Source: Halarcobacter sp.
Lineage (GTDB): Bacteria > Campylobacterota > Campylobacteria > Campylobacterales > Arcobacteraceae
Direction: 5' to 3'
NCBI GenBank assembly: GCA_048571215.1
Contig: CP182352.1
Span: 2,432,001 to 2,496,000, forward strand
DNA length: 64,000 nucleotides
Both the position numbers and the translations under genes were made by a program. Shown in pieces: positions 53,372 to 61,000 of the stretch; position 1 is the first letter of the stretch, and every line of letters begins with the position of its first letter. Below the pieces are notes generated by a model that was given only the letters and a program-made list of their open reading frames with translations, ran no database searches and had not been told where the DNA came from.

Positions 53372-53600
53372 TATTTAATTTTTTTTATTTTAACGAATCT
53401 ATTGTTTTTTATTTGTAAAGTTAAAACTGTAAAAAAAGTTTTAAGAAAAACAATATCTCAAAATAAAAACATTATTATAAGTAAAACTATCACTCTTTTA
53501 AAAGATACATTTCCATCTTTAGTTTGACTAAGTTCAAGAAAAATAAAAATATAAAAAGTACAAAAAACCAAATAGGTGTATTGGTTATAATTTCAGACAT
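53372..53600 (-). pseudogene. Decayed membrane protein gene (DUF6622-like)
   Basis: MSEIITNTPIWFFVLFIFLFFL then, after a frameshift, LSQTKDGNVSFKRVIVLLIIMFLF and a stop. Confidence 0.5.
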
Positions 53601-53619
53601 ATTATTTTATTTCTTTTTA

Positions 53620-53952
53620 TCATTTACTTATTTGTTGTTCTAAAATTTTAATAAGAGTTTCTTCTTTAATATTTGTTATCTCAGTTTTTGAATAGATTTT
53701 AAGTAAATAAATATTTTCATCTTCATCTATATAATAATATATAACTCTAAAACCACCACTTTTGCCACTCTTTGATGAACTATTTTCTAATCTCATTTTA
53801 TAAAGTTTTGAAGATAACTCGATACCTACTTTTGGATTTTCATTAAGTAATTGATTTAAAGTTTTTAAATCTTGCGGAAGTTTTTTATTCTTCTTATATA
53901 ACTTTTTAACATCTTTTTTAAATGATTCTAAACTAATTATTTTCAAGTTCAT
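53620..53952 (-). CDS. Type II toxin, RelE/ParE superfamily (RelE/HigB-like)
   Basis: FKKDVKKL.KK, KMRL, GKSGGFRVIYY, LLKIYSK. Confidence 0.88.
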   Translation of the reverse strand: MNLKIISLESFKKDVKKLYKKNKKLPQDLKTLNQLLNENPKVGIELSSKLYKMRLENSSSKSGKSGGFRVIYYYIDEDENIYLLKIYSKTEITNIKEETLIKILEQQISK

Positions 53953-54208
53953 TAATCAAATCTTCTAAAGTATCATTCTTTTTCTTACTCTTTTTTGAAA
54001 TAGTTTCATTCAACTCACCACAAGCCTCATCAAACTCACTATAAAAAATATTAGCCTTTTGTTCTTCTACATAAGATTTGATAGCTTCGATAATAACTTC
54101 ACTACGATTGACAGAAAAACTCTTAGTAAATTCATCAATCTCATCAAGAAGATATTTTGGAACTCGTAGACCAACTTGTTGTTTTTCCAAGGATGATAAA
54201 TTATTCAT
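53933..54208 (-). CDS. Ribbon-helix-helix antitoxin
   Basis: VGLRVPKYLLDEID...NRSEVIIEAI, acidic tail, overlaps the toxin start. Confidence 0.85.
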   Translation of the reverse strand: MNNLSSLEKQQVGLRVPKYLLDEIDEFTKSFSVNRSEVIIEAIKSYVEEQKANIFYSEFDEACGELNETISKKSKKKNDTLEDLINELENN

Positions 54209-54231
54209 ATAAACCCTTTTTGTTTTTCTAT

Positions 54232-54260
54232 ATTATATATTATTGTTTTACAGTTGTCAA
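54232..54260 (-). promoter_or_regulatory. Toxin-antitoxin operon promoter with an imperfect palindrome in the spacer
   Basis: TTGACA (54260-54255), 17-nt spacer containing TGTaaaACA, TATAAT (54237-54232). Confidence 0.8.
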
Positions 54261-54272
54261 ATATTTATTGTT

Positions 54273-57200
54273 TTAGAAGTCATCAATGAAATCTCTCTTT
54301 TTCTCTTTTTTAATTTCTTCTTTCTTCCATTCTATTTTATTTTCAATAAATTTTCTATGCTCTAAATACTCTATTCCATTAAATAAATTTAAAAGTAATT
54401 CAAAAAACTCTAATCTTTTTTGATACATTGGGATAGCACTCCCACTCCAAGACATTGAAGTTTTTTCTAAAGACAATTCTTTAAAAATATTAACATCGCT
54501 ATTTTGAGTAATGAACTGTTTTATAAAATCTATTCTCAAATCTTCCTCTATTTGTGAAATAACTTCTTTAAAAATTAATTTTATTTTTTTATTATTTGCA
54601 ATATTTACAGAAATAAATCTTCTTAAAAAATCAATTTGTGTTTTTGTTAAACTTCCTTCTTCATTTCTATGGTCAGTTATATTGAAAAATAATCTAAGTT
54701 TATCATGTAACCTATAATCTGTTCTATTCTCATAAAAATGTTCAATTATCCTATTAAAAACCACTTCATAATCATCTCTTTTCCACAAAATGTGATACTC
54801 CCGTGCAAATGATTTTTCTTTTGTGTTATTTAAATATTCTGTAATAAAATTAATATCAATATTTAAAATTTCATTCATTGTTTTTGCATTATAATCAAAA
54901 TGATTTGAATATATATCAGATTTTAGATATAAAGATTTTAATAATGAAATATTGCTTTTAAAATATATTATCAATTTACTATTAGCTTCGTTATATGGAT
55001 TAAACAACAAATCTAAACCATGCAGAAAATTTTGATTAATCTCAGATTTGTCATACAGTATTTGCGCAATTTTAACAAAAATTTCATTATCAACTTCCCA
55101 ATACTTAACTATAAAACCAGTATTATAAGGAATATTTTGGGGATTTTTTTCTTCCCTATAAAGAATTAATAAATTATCTACATCCTTCTTTAAAATATCT
55201 TCTTTTTTTATGTGAGCAGAAAAAGCAAAAGAAAACTTATTTTTATAGTTGTCATTTAAATTATTTACAAACTCTTCAACAAAAACTTTTGTTTTCAATT
55301 CTAGTAAACTTTTGATAATTATATGTTCATTAAATTTGAAAGTATATGTTACATTTACAATATGATTTATTAATTCATAATACATCTCATCAAATTTTGA
55401 TGCTAAAACTACCAATAACCTATTAATATTACTAGTTAATTGATAAGGTTCTCTATTGTTAACATTTAAATGATTGAGTTCATTTAATACATCAAATAAG
55501 TTTTTAAATTCTTTTATTGAAAAATTCTCTATATAATTAAAAATCTCTTTTTTAATTAATTCTTCTGATTCAGATATATCAATATTTTTATCTTTATTAT
55601 AAAAATCTCCATAATCTAAATAAAACACTTTTTCAATATTCATATAATCATGTTTGAATTTATTTCTCAAACTTTCATCATAAGGAATAGAATATTTTTC
55701 CCACAAATCACATAAATATATAACTGCTTTTACTTCTAAATAATTGTTCGTTGAAAAAAATTTGTAAATATATTCTGTAATTATTTCTTTATCCCAAATC
55801 TCAACATCTGAAGTTTTTGATTCCCATCCATAACGATAATCAAGAATAAATTCTATAAGCTTTTTATCATCTTTTTTATATAGAGTAAAAAGAATCTTCC
55901 AAATTGTTTTTCTCAATATTTTCAAAGCATCATTTTCTACTAATTTAAAAGTATAAATAATAATACTTCTTTCTTCTGACTCAGTAGATTGAAATTGTGT
56001 CTGTAAATAATATCTACCTAGGTCATATAAAAGATTTAAATATATAATTTCATTTTTATTTACTTTGTCTATTATCTTATCTACAATATATTGCTGAATA
56101 ATATAGTCTTCTTTATAAGAATATCTATTAAATCCGAAACTATTTTTTAAAACTTCTAAAAACTTTTCATAGATTTTTTCATTTTTATCAAAATACATAA
56201 ATAATAAATCGATGACCTCTTTGTAGTGTTCATAGTCATTACTAAATATTTTAATAAGTTCTAAAATCTTGTCATCAGCATATTTTTCGCTATTTATGTT
56301 TTCAATATCTTCTTCAGATAGATTTTCAATTAATACTTTTATATAAACTAAATTTCCCGTCCTATCTAAATACCAAAAAAATTTAACTAATTCATACTCT
56401 TTACTAAAATCACCTTGAGACTCTTTCTTTAATCTCTCAAATGGTATCTTCAATTTTTCTGATACAAAGGTAAAATCAAAGCTATTAAATATAGGATTTA
56501 ATACATCATTTAGTTTTTTGTTTTGTAATAGAAAGAAACTATTTATAAAAATATCTATATCTAAAATATTTTCAAGAAAAACCACCTTATAAAAAAGATA
56601 GGTTGATAAAATTTGGTCAGATATTTTTACAACTTCATCTTCATATAAATCAACAATCTCTAATTCATTTAGTTGTTTAACCTTTTCCCAAAATAAATCT
56701 ATTTTTATAGAAAATATTTCTTCAAGTTGTGTTATTTGTATTTCATTTGATTTATCAATACTTCTATAAAATGAAATAATAGCAATCACTTTCATTAATT
56801 CTATATCATTAAATAAATCTATTTCTTCGCTAACTGCTTTATAATAAATATCATATACTTTTGATATATCATTTATACTACTTAAATCATTAGTATCTCT
56901 TGCAATCTTAGAAATCATAACAGCCAGCCTAGGGTTACCTTTAGATAGATATTCAATTCTTTCAATATACATAGGATTTTTGATATTAAAATCATTTACT
57001 ATAATAGATTTAATTGCTTCTTTTCCCAACTGGTTTACTTTTATCTCTACATAGCTAAAAATTCTATCAGATAAGAGTTTTATAATATTATCTTTTGCAT
57101 AATCTCTTACAGTCATCACAATCTTTAACTTATTATCAACAATCTTCTCAGGATAAAGTTGTAACAAATAATCAAGTGCTAAATGAATACGATTTACATC

Positions 57201-57851
57201 ATCAAGAAAAATCACATATTTTTTATTCCCATTAAAAAAGCTATTAATATCTTCAAAAAAATCAGCTCCTCTTCTAATTATACAAACTGACTCATAACTT
57301 GAGTCCTTGCAAAATTCTTTAATTGATTCTATTGCTAATCTACTTTTTCCAATACCAGATTTACCCGATATTATTAAGAAGTTATTCACTCTTAACTTAT
57401 CAATAATATCAGCTTTTTCTTCTTTCCTTCCATACAAATTAATATCTAATGGAGTTGCAAATTTATTGTATTGATAATTATCAATAAACTCATTAAGTTT
57501 TAAAATTTGTCTAGTTGATATTTTACGTTGATAAGTTATTTCTAGAACTCTTAAAAAAATTATTGCAGTAGAAAATAAAAAAGCTATAACAACAATTAAC
57601 CAACTCCCACCTGAAATAAAAATATCCACAATTTGTATTAATAATTTTTCTTTTGGAGGTATATAACTTTTTATTAATAAATTTAATTCTTCACTTATTG
57701 TTAATAATGTGATGTTAAATATAATTGTTAAAAAAAATCTCCAGACTAAAGTGAAATAAGACAAAGGCTTAATAAACCATTGAACTAATTTATTGTCAAA
57801 AACTATTTCGGTGAATTTATTAAAATTCTTTAGCTTTTCAATATAATGCAT
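54273..57851 (-). CDS. 1192-aa protein: two N-terminal TM helices, STAND-like P-loop NTPase, long helical C-terminus; candidate anti-phage protein
   Basis: LYGRKEE, Walker A GKSGIGKS, Walker B YVIFLDD, sensor-1 IVMTVR, GNP motif; hydrophobic segments near residues 30-52 and 76-102. Confidence 0.75.
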   Translation of the reverse strand: MHYIEKLKNFNKFTEIVFDNKLVQWFIKPLSYFTLVWRFFLTIIFNITLLTISEELNLLIKSYIPPKEKLLIQIVDIFISGGSWLIVVIAFLFSTAIIFLRVLEITYQRKISTRQILKLNEFIDNYQYNKFATPLDINLYGRKEEKADIIDKLRVNNFLIISGKSGIGKSRLAIESIKEFCKDSSYESVCIIRRGADFFEDINSFFNGNKKYVIFLDDVNRIHLALDYLLQLYPEKIVDNKLKIVMTVRDYAKDNIIKLLSDRIFSYVEIKVNQLGKEAIKSIIVNDFNIKNPMYIERIEYLSKGNPRLAVMISKIARDTNDLSSINDISKVYDIYYKAVSEEIDLFNDIELMKVIAIISFYRSIDKSNEIQITQLEEIFSIKIDLFWEKVKQLNELEIVDLYEDEVVKISDQILSTYLFYKVVFLENILDIDIFINSFFLLQNKKLNDVLNPIFNSFDFTFVSEKLKIPFERLKKESQGDFSKEYELVKFFWYLDRTGNLVYIKVLIENLSEEDIENINSEKYADDKILELIKIFSNDYEHYKEVIDLLFMYFDKNEKIYEKFLEVLKNSFGFNRYSYKEDYIIQQYIVDKIIDKVNKNEIIYLNLLYDLGRYYLQTQFQSTESEERSIIIYTFKLVENDALKILRKTIWKILFTLYKKDDKKLIEFILDYRYGWESKTSDVEIWDKEIITEYIYKFFSTNNYLEVKAVIYLCDLWEKYSIPYDESLRNKFKHDYMNIEKVFYLDYGDFYNKDKNIDISESEELIKKEIFNYIENFSIKEFKNLFDVLNELNHLNVNNREPYQLTSNINRLLVVLASKFDEMYYELINHIVNVTYTFKFNEHIIIKSLLELKTKVFVEEFVNNLNDNYKNKFSFAFSAHIKKEDILKKDVDNLLILYREEKNPQNIPYNTGFIVKYWEVDNEIFVKIAQILYDKSEINQNFLHGLDLLFNPYNEANSKLIIYFKSNISLLKSLYLKSDIYSNHFDYNAKTMNEILNIDINFITEYLNNTKEKSFAREYHILWKRDDYEVVFNRIIEHFYENRTDYRLHDKLRLFFNITDHRNEEGSLTKTQIDFLRRFISVNIANNKKIKLIFKEVISQIEEDLRIDFIKQFITQNSDVNIFKELSLEKTSMSWSGSAIPMYQKRLEFFELLLNLFNGIEYLEHRKFIENKIEWKKEEIKKEKKRDFIDDF

Positions 57852-57904
57852 AAAGTATCCTATAAATAATTTATATACATATTATAGTAGTATTATTTTA
57901 AAAT

Positions 57905-58039
57905 AAATAGAAAATTGTAGATTTTTTTAAAGCTCAAGGCGAAGAGTAAGATTTGTGAAGGAGCTTACATGAAAGTAAGTGACTAAATAAATCTTACTCT
58001 TCAACGCAGAGATTTAGAAAAAGATGCAGTTTTATATTT
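57905..58039. mobile_element. About 130-bp imperfect palindrome (MITE/REP-like) between mfd and the NTPase gene
   Basis: Nested arms gaagagtaagattt / aaatcttactcttc (14-bp perfect), gcttac / gtaagt, ttttttaaagctc / gagatttagaaaa; no ORF. Confidence 0.65.
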
Positions 58040-61000
58040 ATTTTTTTCTCAAGTATTTTAATGCTGTCGCTATAATATCATCGTCATCTTTGCTTGGACT
58101 TTTTATTGTCTCTTTTGTATCATCTGCTTTAGTAAAGGTAACATTCATTTCGTATGAACTCACTGCTTTAATTGCTTTTTGGATACTTAAAATTTTTACC
58201 ATAATTAATTCTAAAAACTGTTTTGTTGGAGTATCTGGTTTACCAAATCTATCCTCCATCTCTTCTTCTATTGCATACACCTCTTGCTTATCATGACATT
58301 TTGAAAGTCTTCTATATAGTTCCAATCTTACCCTATCTTCAACTATATAATCATTGCTAATATAAGCAGAAATAGCAAGTTTTAAATCAACAGTTTTTGA
58401 CTCCTCTTTTGTATCACCATTTAGAGTTGCTAAAGCATCTTCTAACATCTTTAAGTAAAGCCCATAACCTATTTGTTTGATATGTCCACTTTGGGCTTCT
58501 CCTATGATATTTCCACCACCTCTTATCTCTAGATCTTGATGAGCTAGGGCTGTTCCACTTCCTAAATATGAATTTGTTTCTAAGGCAACTAATCTTTTTA
58601 TAGCATCATTTGTAATTTGTTTTTTATCCTCAACCACATAATAACAAAATCCCTCTTTGTCACTTCGTCCAACTCTTCCTCTTAGTTGATGAAGGTCTGC
58701 TATACCAAACCTATCAGCTCCATCAATCACAATTGAGTTTGCATTTGGTAAATGAAGTCCTGATTCAACTATTGAAGTTGCAAGTAAGATATCAAACTCT
58801 TTAGTATCAAATCTTTCAATAATCTTTTCAGCCTCCAAAGGTTTTATTTTTGAGTGGATAACCTCTATTTTTATATTTGGAACAATTTGTTGTATATCCT
58901 CTTTTTTAGCCTCTATTGAAGCTATGTTATTGTGTACATAAAAAAGTTGTCCGCCCCTTCTTTTTTCTCTAAGGATTATCTCTTTTATAAGTTTATCACT
59001 ATACTCTTTTACATAGGTTCTTACCCCTAATCTTTCCGTTGGTGGGGTTAATAAACTACTCATACCTTTTAGTTTACTAAGGGCTAGATTTAGTGTTCTT
59101 GGAATTGGGGTTGCACTCATAGAAAAAATATGTACATCTTCTCTAAGTGCTTTTAGTTTCTCTTTTTGTTTTACCCCAAACTTATGCTCTTCATCTATAA
59201 TAACCAAAGCTAAATTGTGGGTTTTTACACTAAGAAGGGAGTGGGTTCCAATTACTAATTGTAAAGAGCCATCAGCTAATGCTTTTTTAACTTCTGTTTT
59301 CTCTTTTGCAGTAGATTGTCCATCTAGTTTTCCAATTTTTATACCAAAACCTTCAAACCTTTTTTTCATACTATGATAGTGTTGTGATGCCAAAAGTGTA
59401 GTTGGACAAACAAATACAGCCTGATAACCATCTAAAACTGTAGCAAGGATTGCATTCATGGCAACCTCTGTTTTCCCAAAACCAACATCTCCACTTAAAA
59501 GTCTATCCATCACTCGACCACTATTTAAATCTGTAAATATCTCTTTTACACTTCTTTTTTGATCTTTTGTATACTCAAATCCTGCACTATATTCGAACTC
59601 TTCAAGTAATTTTTTCTGAGTATTTATTTTTATACCATTTACAAGTTCCCTTGCAGCTGCCATTTTTATAATATCATTTGCAATAGCAAATAATCTATCT
59701 TTTACTTTCTCTTTTAGTTTGGCAAAACTTCCTTTACCTAACTTATCCACAACAGCATAGGAACTACCATCTGCAACATATCTATCTATTAAATCTATAT
59801 TTTCAACAGGCAATAAAAGCTTATCATCTCCCGCATACATCACAACTACAAAGTCTCTTTTAGCACCCATTACAACAAAGGGTTCTATCCCTTTATATTG
59901 ACCTATACCGTGGGTTTCATGAACTACAAAATCTCCACTTTGTAACTCATCAAGTACAAGTTTTACCTTTTTTTTACGCTTCTTTTTTATCTCTTTATTT
60001 AGTGAAATTATAACTTCATCATTTGTAAGAACATTTATAATATAGTTTTCAAAACAATAGTTTATATTTTTGTTTGTAAGGTCTAAATCAAAAGCTTTTA
60101 CTTTTGCTTCAGTTGAAGAGATAATGGTTACTTTTTTACCCTCATGAAATGTTAAAAACTCTTTTATATTTGATGGGGCTATCTCTTTTGCATCTTTTGC
60201 ATTATAGATTTGTGGTGTAGCTAAAAACTTATCTTTATTAAGTCTTTTTTCTTCAAAAACATAAGCTTCATCAAGTTCATCTAAAGCATCTTGGGTTATA
60301 TATGAATTTAGATTTTGAGGAAGGTATTCTCCTAATTCGTCTAAATACCAAAATCCCAAAGAGTGAATATCTTTTATAAAAGCATCACTGTTTACTGCAT
60401 CTATTTTTTCATTTATATCCTCTAAAGCACTCTCATCCAAAGCTAAAAATGCAGGAGATATTTTAAAACTTTCTATCTCCTCCTTTTCACTTTTTTGCTC
60501 TTCAATATCAAATTTTCTAATACTCTCAACTTCATCATCAAAAAGTGAAACCCTATATCCTATCTCACTTCCCAAAGGACAAATATCTACTATATCCCCA
60601 CGAATTGAAACCTCCCCTTCACTTGTGACAATATCTACAAAGTAGTATCCCCAATTGAAAAGTTTGCTTTTAAACTCTTCAAGATTTAAGGTATCTGCAA
60701 AAGAGATTTCAAAAGAATCAAAACATTTCTCTTTTGGCATAGGAAAACTAATAGTTCTAATAGGAGCAATTAATATTTTGTCCTCTTTTTTATAAGAGTA
60801 ATAATCATTTAAAGTTTTAGTTATCTCTTGAAGCTCACTAGAGAAAGAGAGTAAATCATCCCCAAAATTAGCTCTAAAATCTGCTAAAGCAAAAGCTTTA
60901 AATCCTAAAAAAGAGACTATATCTGAAGCTATTTGGGCTTGCCTATCATCATTTACAATTAAAAGCTGACATTTTTTTAAATTTTTGTCATCTTTTAAAT

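Follow-up and report, generated by a model that had tools for sequence, protein, structure and literature searches.

An Avs-like STAND protein of Arcobacteraceae with a putative membrane effector in the place of a nuclease

Introduction

Avs proteins act through binding of a ligand to the sensor, oligomerization, and effector-dependent death, as described in a recent survey (Lee et al., Nature 2026, PMC13581612), where Avs7–24 are named. For Avs7, PMC12803255 gives at least 20 N-terminal effectors. Transmembrane (TM) domains are included in the domain key of the Avs7/Dsr1 tree (legend to Extended Data Fig. 2 of PMC13581612) and also appear in bacterial NACHT architectures (10.1101/2022.07.19.500537); PMC11564622 yielded no “transmembrane” passage. 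The source data of the survey list 15 Avs effector mutants, every one of them nuclease-type: 13 are (Q/E)xK doubles and two are single Asp mutants (HjAvs13 D47A and ApAvs15 D53A; PMC13581612). Here, we describe a gene for a 1192-amino-acid STAND protein at positions 54273–57851 of the reverse strand in a stretch of 64,000 nucleotides of Halarcobacter sp. (contig CP182352.1, positions 2,432,001 to 2,496,000; hereafter, the window, in whose coordinates features are given), in which a hydrophobic helical hairpin stands where most relatives carry a putative nuclease.

In plant CC-NLR resistosomes and in the two-TM effectors of CBASS and Pycsar, a membrane lesion arises when oligomerization brings amphipathic or TM helices of the N-terminus together. 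We consider it reasonably probable that the window gene encodes an NLR-like, one-gene anti-phage protein whose hairpin damages the membrane of its own cell. The first-pass annotation, made from the sequence alone, had called it the best candidate for an undescribed system; this was too strong, as the protein represents a variant, confined to one lineage, within a large nSTAND3 family, and this family has possibly already been characterized as Avs15. Searches of the literature outside subscription papers listed neither a description of this membrane variant nor a tested membrane-effector Avs. Its clade offers a clean natural pair, that is, the same NTPase and sensor with either a nuclease, of which L004/L038 is an example from this very bacterial family, or a 112-residue hairpin, and the pair makes it testable whether a bacterial NLR oligomer itself forms a membrane lesion, like plant resistosomes. 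Should the family prove to be Avs15, its trigger would already be known. At least 756 clusters make up the family, and present PADLOC and NCBIfam models do not recognize it.

Results and Discussion

Domain organization of the protein

The open reading frame is intact and has the tripartite plan of Avs proteins (N-terminal effector, STAND module, long helical sensor), as read in the first-pass annotation. The N-terminal domain, amino acids 1–112 (57516–57851, reverse strand, as for all parts of the gene), is delimited by hydropathy, alignment, and structural models. The STAND module with its nucleotide-binding domain, helical domain, and winged helix, amino acids 113–425 (56577–57515), is placed by Pfam, models, and motifs; the helical-repeat sensor takes up amino acids 426–1192 (54276–56576) according to AlphaFold2 models and the alignment.

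The protein belongs to the STAND NTPases (nSTAND3): the Pfam family nSTAND3 (PF20720) matches with 33.6 bits at a cut-off of 27.2. The motif order proposed from the sequence is fully present, and all motifs are invariant in 25/25 rows of the membrane-type alignment, namely Walker A G163–K169 with S/T170 (57342–57365), Walker B D217–D218, G141–R142, T247-x-R249, and G305-x-P307. A structure aligner matches the NTPase fold with Apaf-1 (Z 14.7, root-mean-square deviation (rmsd) 3.4, 209 residues aligned) and NRC2 (Z 14.6, rmsd 3.1, 180 aligned). In two AlphaFold2 models, with a whole-protein mean pLDDT of 83.3 and 80.6, the C-terminal region is the long helical one that had been expected: it is nearly all helix, with one beta-hairpin at about 619–636. 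The conserved SWSGS motif occupies residues 1134–1138 (54438–54452).

Replacement of a nuclease by a hydrophobic hairpin

A search with residues 115–1192 collected 64 proteins. The N-termini of 23 match the membrane-domain profile and those of 37 the nuclease profile, with no protein matching both; thus, the shared core does occur with different N-termini, and the suggestion that a membrane domain replaces a nuclease holds. The remaining four are two fragments, one protein with a short-called start, and one (P0062) with a third N-terminus, of about 130 residues, helical-looking, and neither nuclease nor hydrophobic. Hence, three exchangeable N-termini (the nuclease, the membrane hairpin, and the helical type of P0062) are found on one core. 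In the genome survey, where 80 loci were kept out of 490 stretches, 78 loci have the nuclease domain, one the membrane domain, and one neither; the nuclease form is spread across many phyla.

The N-terminal domain of the nuclease form is about 160 residues long, with invariant G50-x-P52-D53, K78, and D82, and near-invariant E67. Its Pfam matches are weak and fall in PD-(D/E)xK families (L_protein_N in 9/46, VRR_NUC in 2/46). In the ESM Atlas, a nuclease homolog retrieved nSTAND3 and Mrr_cat clusters only, and PDB sequence searches gave only P-loop-level or chance matches. Since the motif pattern and the weak Pfam matches are what speaks for the label, we infer, rather than observe, a PD-(D/E)xK-like nuclease. 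With an hhalign probability of 0.1%, the membrane and nuclease domains are unrelated in sequence.

The boundary is sharp. Matches of nuclease-bearing relatives to the 1192-residue protein begin at amino acids 110–111, and the putative swap junction, TRQIL at amino acids 113–117 (57501–57515), equals the (D)TGQI(L/V) that closes the nuclease domain of the relatives. In the tree of the shared part (FastTree, 116 rows, midpoint root), the membrane type, represented by 12 of its rows to save computing time, is a single clade (support 1.0) within a 28-leaf clade (0.99), the other 16 leaves of which bear the nuclease and, where named, are mostly Campylobacterota. As the membrane clade is nested among nuclease-bearers, the nuclease is taken as ancestral and replaced once; the tree thus shows a single replacement by the hydrophobic hairpin, placed in Arcobacteraceae, to which the named close relatives of the protein belong. 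The nuclease form is also present in an Arcobacter (L004/L038).

The N-terminal domain

Basic amphipathic helices (amino acids 1–28) are predicted to precede the hairpin. Two Kyte–Doolittle peaks are seen in the protein, at 34–52 (1.79) and 85–103 (2.73), so that the two hydrophobic helices announced from the sequence are both found, helix 2 as a clear TM candidate and helix 1 as a marginal one. Helix 1 covers amino acids 32–52 (57696–57758); its mean hydropathy in the clade (25 rows) is 1.7, and it is at least 1.6 in 20/23 homologs. Helix 2, amino acids 83–104 (57540–57605), is preceded by the invariant G82–S83–W84 and followed by basic residues; its mean is 2.8. In the same 25 rows, five to seven Lys/Arg residues lie before the hairpin and three to six after it, the loop being near neutral; this charge pattern fits a topology with the N-terminus inside, the loop outside, and the C-terminus inside. 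Two membrane-spanning helices are likely, as judged by hydropathy; one TM helix with a re-entrant helix is a possible alternative for amino acids 1–112.

The domain is maintained. In three pairwise comparisons, its ratio of nonsynonymous to synonymous substitution rates (dN/dS) is 0.10–0.24, compared with 0.17–0.20 for the NTPase and 0.34–0.39 for the sensor; the membrane domain is under purifying selection. It occurs in 3/184 genomes of the bacterial family, fused to the STAND core every time. No stand-alone copy was confirmed among 594 pattern matches in JGI metagenomes, and the ESM Atlas was blank for amino acids 1–112.

Comparison with known systems and the possible trigger

By fold, the closest described proteins are other Avs proteins: the top Foldseek ranks are Avs4, Avs3, SAMD9, and Avs5, with identities of 10–13% and TM-scores of about 0.2, and by a second structure aligner the good match is limited to the NTPase part. 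Avs4, the portal sensor (PDB 8dgf), is the top Foldseek match of both models (E about 1e-8) and shares the STAND module and the long helical sensor; it differs in sequence (11–12% identity, TM-score about 0.2), and the window protein is about 350 residues shorter and has no nuclease. Homology to Avs4 is not seen in sequence, as there is no profile match to 8dgf and no PADLOC Avs4 match for the query and 26 homologs; the PADLOC Avs4 model did match a neighboring STAND protein in L053. Avs5/SAMD9 and Avs3 share the STAND fold (9jap with Z 15.9 and rmsd 16.3 over 413 residues; 9zjs and 8dgc by Foldseek), whereas their effectors (SIR2, nuclease) and sensors are other ones, at 10–13% identity. A PDB profile search with the family did not retrieve Avs3, Avs4, or Avs5. 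The protein is, by sequence, not Avs1–4.

The NTPase domain also matches NRC2/3/4 structures of plant CC-NLR resistosomes (ZAR1, NRC), with Z of about 14. The likeness to these resistosomes, as to the TM effectors of CBASS and Pycsar, is a functional analogy only, since no sequence or profile similarity of amino acids 1–112 to either was found.

We see a little better than an even chance that the family is Avs15, with a phage tail terminator as the trigger; this would refine our preferred reading of a membrane-damaging defense protein. Avs15 is likewise tripartite with a helical sensor, and its effector mutant in the source data is D53A (Lee et al., Nature 2026, PMC13581612), at the residue number of the invariant catalytic-type Asp of the nuclease form; the window protein differs in having no nuclease, hence no D53, and a hydrophobic hairpin instead. 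ApAvs15 was compared by the listed mutant only. The invariant Asp of the GTPD motif is residue 53 exactly in 125/146 family proteins, the same number as in ApAvs15 D53A, and (Q/E)xK follows this Asp in only 12/146, so that the Asp is what one would mutate. Against the assignment, the agreement in residue number can be chance, and no Acinetobacter member was named among the matches listed.

One DNA query found no family match in E. coli genomes, which fits the use of a non-enteric Avs15 homolog. HK97, Pal014, and Pal001 are among the phages whose tail terminators activate Avs15 (PMC13581612); HK97-type tail terminators are found in prophage-like regions of 4/151 genomes of the bacterial family, and no PF11367 tail terminator was found in the window’s own genome. 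Prediction of a complex of residues 345–1192 with an HK97-type tail terminator scored 0.00 twice; the controls also came out unfolded, and this gives no evidence either way.

A defense protein of an uncharacterized sensor cluster that responds to something else, be it another phage protein or a disturbance of the host, is quite possible, though we would not expect it. Such an origin would agree with the fact that no library model or solved structure matches the family by sequence; in the survey, 90 prevalent sensor clusters are counted and triggers are reported for 13 new families (PMC13581612). The coincidence with D53 of ApAvs15 weighs against it.

Distribution and neighborhood of the family

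The gene is neither core nor syntenic, as the reading in the first-pass annotation requires. Any member of the family is found in 4/151 genomes of the bacterial family and in 0/21 genomes of the same genus, while mfd is present in 145/151; two further genome sets have 8/301 and 3/401 (the latter at the order level). The gene is very AT-rich, as had been noted, with a GC content of 22.1% vs. 28.5% in the genome; only 0.19% of same-size segments are this low. The 10 kb that follow mfd were read in 38 genomes, of which 20 belong to the same genus and one, G061, was included as a known carrier; the slot is highly variable, and the STAND gene is found there only in G061. A HipA-like kinase gene, assigned by eye, directly follows mfd in another genus (L149:358-1554, G010), that is, a toxin-type gene in the slot.

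Four membrane-type loci could be seen in context. The window, G061, and L251 directly follow mfd; the fourth is in an integrase-flanked element near homologs of PD-Lambda-2 B and C. No partner gene is common to the four. The homolog in the integrase-flanked element (L035:7977-11591, the same as L153 and G081) is annotated with 1078 residues (P0024), leaving out the N-terminus; the frame contains the whole hairpin, and the expected start codon position reads CTG.

For 30 nuclease loci, PADLOC was run at 1e-8 on 119 proteins, the products of the two closest genes to the left and to the right; one piece of a broken family gene was dropped. A match lies near 15 of the loci, 11 of them clear and four doubtful, with restriction-modification, AbiE, SIR2, SoFic, another STAND, and PDC genes as the clear classes. 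Such neighborhoods are suggestive of defense but do not prove it. The neighbors include a second STAND gene (L053:11406-13778, with PADLOC PDC-M54A and Avs4 matches) directly behind a nuclease-type member in a cyanobacterium, and a type I restriction-modification operon with a nuclease-type member between its specificity and restriction genes (L099:6231-14499). Just upstream of another nuclease-type member lie a CatB-like acetyltransferase gene, assigned by eye, and an integrase-like fragment (L261:5439-6086, G832).

No family members were found in the phage collection; IMG/VR contigs hold four full-length nuclease-type members. Family members, annotated as hypothetical or ATP-binding, are carried by 13 Leptospira plasmids and one Bacillus cereus plasmid. 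In the Campylobacter family, the genes of G259, G279, G292, and G399 are often interrupted at comparable points of the sensor, whether by the end of a contig, a gap of N, or stop codons, possibly reflecting a repeat or phase-variable tract in the sensor; an apparent 3400-residue Campylobacter form in G279 was rejected, as it contains a run of N.

Proposed mode of action

A defense role of the protein is likely, and membrane killing by amino acids 1–112 is proposed by analogy. The steps follow how Avs proteins work, and are conditional for that reason. In the resting state, the protein would be autoinhibited and probably tethered to the inner membrane, with the N-terminus and the NTPase in the cytoplasm. 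The helical sensor would wrap around a conserved phage protein, for which the tail terminator is the best guess provided that the family is Avs15. Nucleotide exchange would then let the NTPases oligomerize, and in the oligomer the hairpins, together with the amphipathic helices at the N-terminus, would cluster to form a lesion or channel; the cell would be depolarized and the infection aborted. A bolder version, which we hold to be doubtful, is a bacterial “resistosome”, in which the hairpin, as a novel membrane-effector family, would form an ion-conducting pore once the receptor has bound a phage assembly protein, which might be the tail terminator; nature would then have exchanged a nuclease for a pore on a single sensor, in convergence with the channels of plant CC-NLRs.

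Several observations weigh against a membrane-damaging defense protein. Helix 1 is only marginally hydrophobic, with R/K38 (22/25) and E46 (22/25) inside it, and AlphaFold2 confidence for amino acids 1–112 is low (about 44–68), the hairpin being drawn as helical. No Pfam, PHROGs, or PADLOC family matches these residues above the cut-off, and a membrane-domain profile (a shallow one, of three rows) searched against 1.84 billion representatives found its own cluster and a 40-residue fragment only. As these searches turned up no kin among described membrane effectors, pore formation is argued from analogy; remote kinship to known TM effectors is conceivable, because short TM domains diverge fast. 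No Avs model of PADLOC and NCBIfam matched the query or 26 and 9 homologs, respectively, so that of the profile matches anticipated in the first-pass annotation, nSTAND3 was obtained and Avs was not. Finally, 3/4 membrane-type loci are found after mfd, a housekeeping gene, rather than in a defense island, and 15/30 nuclease loci have no PADLOC neighbor, a count that has no background control.

The strong hydrophobicity of helix 2 only would also suit a membrane anchor or localization module, with the killer acting in trans, e.g., the RelE/ParE toxin encoded next to the gene or a membrane complex of the host. We regard this as unlikely. The toxin–antitoxin (TA) pair is indeed 65 bp downstream of the STAND gene; however, it has its own perfect promoter consensus, lies behind unrelated genes in G147 and G138, and adjoins none of the other three membrane-type loci. 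The four loci have no partner gene in common, and the hairpin occupies the exact place of the nuclease.

The position of 3/4 loci behind mfd and the lack of a defense-library match might further indicate a role outside defense, as a membrane-bound signaling STAND, or a decayed, effector-less relic, and defense and non-defense STAND clades are interspersed according to PMC13581612. We find both improbable: the immediate relatives bear the nuclease, the gene is patchy and low in GC, the NTPase motifs are all invariant, and the N-terminus is under purifying selection. A membrane-damaging defense protein remains our preferred interpretation.

Expression signals and flanking elements

A putative –10 box TATAAT (57881–57886) and a ribosome-binding site AGGA just ahead of the ATG (together 57859–57886, reverse strand) are read from the sequence, and a promoter of the STAND gene’s own is plausible. 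Both elements named in the first-pass annotation are present; the –10 site was not listed by the consensus scan. That scan gave 48 sites vs. 42.5 expected by chance, and a search for RNA runs listed none.

The neighbors named there, a MITE-like element, a TA pair, and a pseudogene, are all in place, and are given here as context. At the mfd 3′ end lies a palindromic repeat of 145 nucleotides (57900–58044, no strand assigned; RNA fold z –7.96), with about nine further diverged copies in the genome; another search gave five at E ≤ 0.01. Copies of 100–145 nucleotides lie on C1 near 100300, 263570, 421300, 855940, 2137500, 2691720, 2775000, and 3129590. The conserved blocks are TCAAGGCG...GGAGC(T/A)TAC...AAGT(A)(A/T)GTGA...CAACGCAG, with co-varying stems, and Rfam gave no match; the palindrome may be a REP/MITE-like element, or else a structured RNA of Arcobacteraceae that has not been described before. 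In G147, G138, and G054, too, it sits at the mfd 3′ end, where it precedes other genes; it was rejected on this ground as a mobilizing end of the STAND gene.

On the other side, the TA region (53620–54260, reverse strand) comprises, by library matches, an RHH antitoxin (53933–54208) and a RelE/ParE toxin (53620–53952), with a perfect TTGACA-17-TATAAT sigma70 consensus at 54232–54260; no other site in the region matches at 12/12, and it is conserved in both G147 and G138. The pair was rejected as a subunit of the system: in G147 and G138, the genes lying between this palindrome and this TA pair are unrelated ones, and so neither element is tied to the STAND gene. Beyond it lies the remnant of a DUF6622 membrane-protein gene, a pseudogene recognized by a sequence match (53451–53616, reverse strand).

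In the slot between mfd with the palindrome and the TA pair, G147 has a 381-residue gene (L117:513-1658) and G138 a 240-residue gene (L121:481-1203). No Pfam, PHROG, PADLOC, or NCBIfam family matches either above the cut-off; both are candidates for further defense genes.

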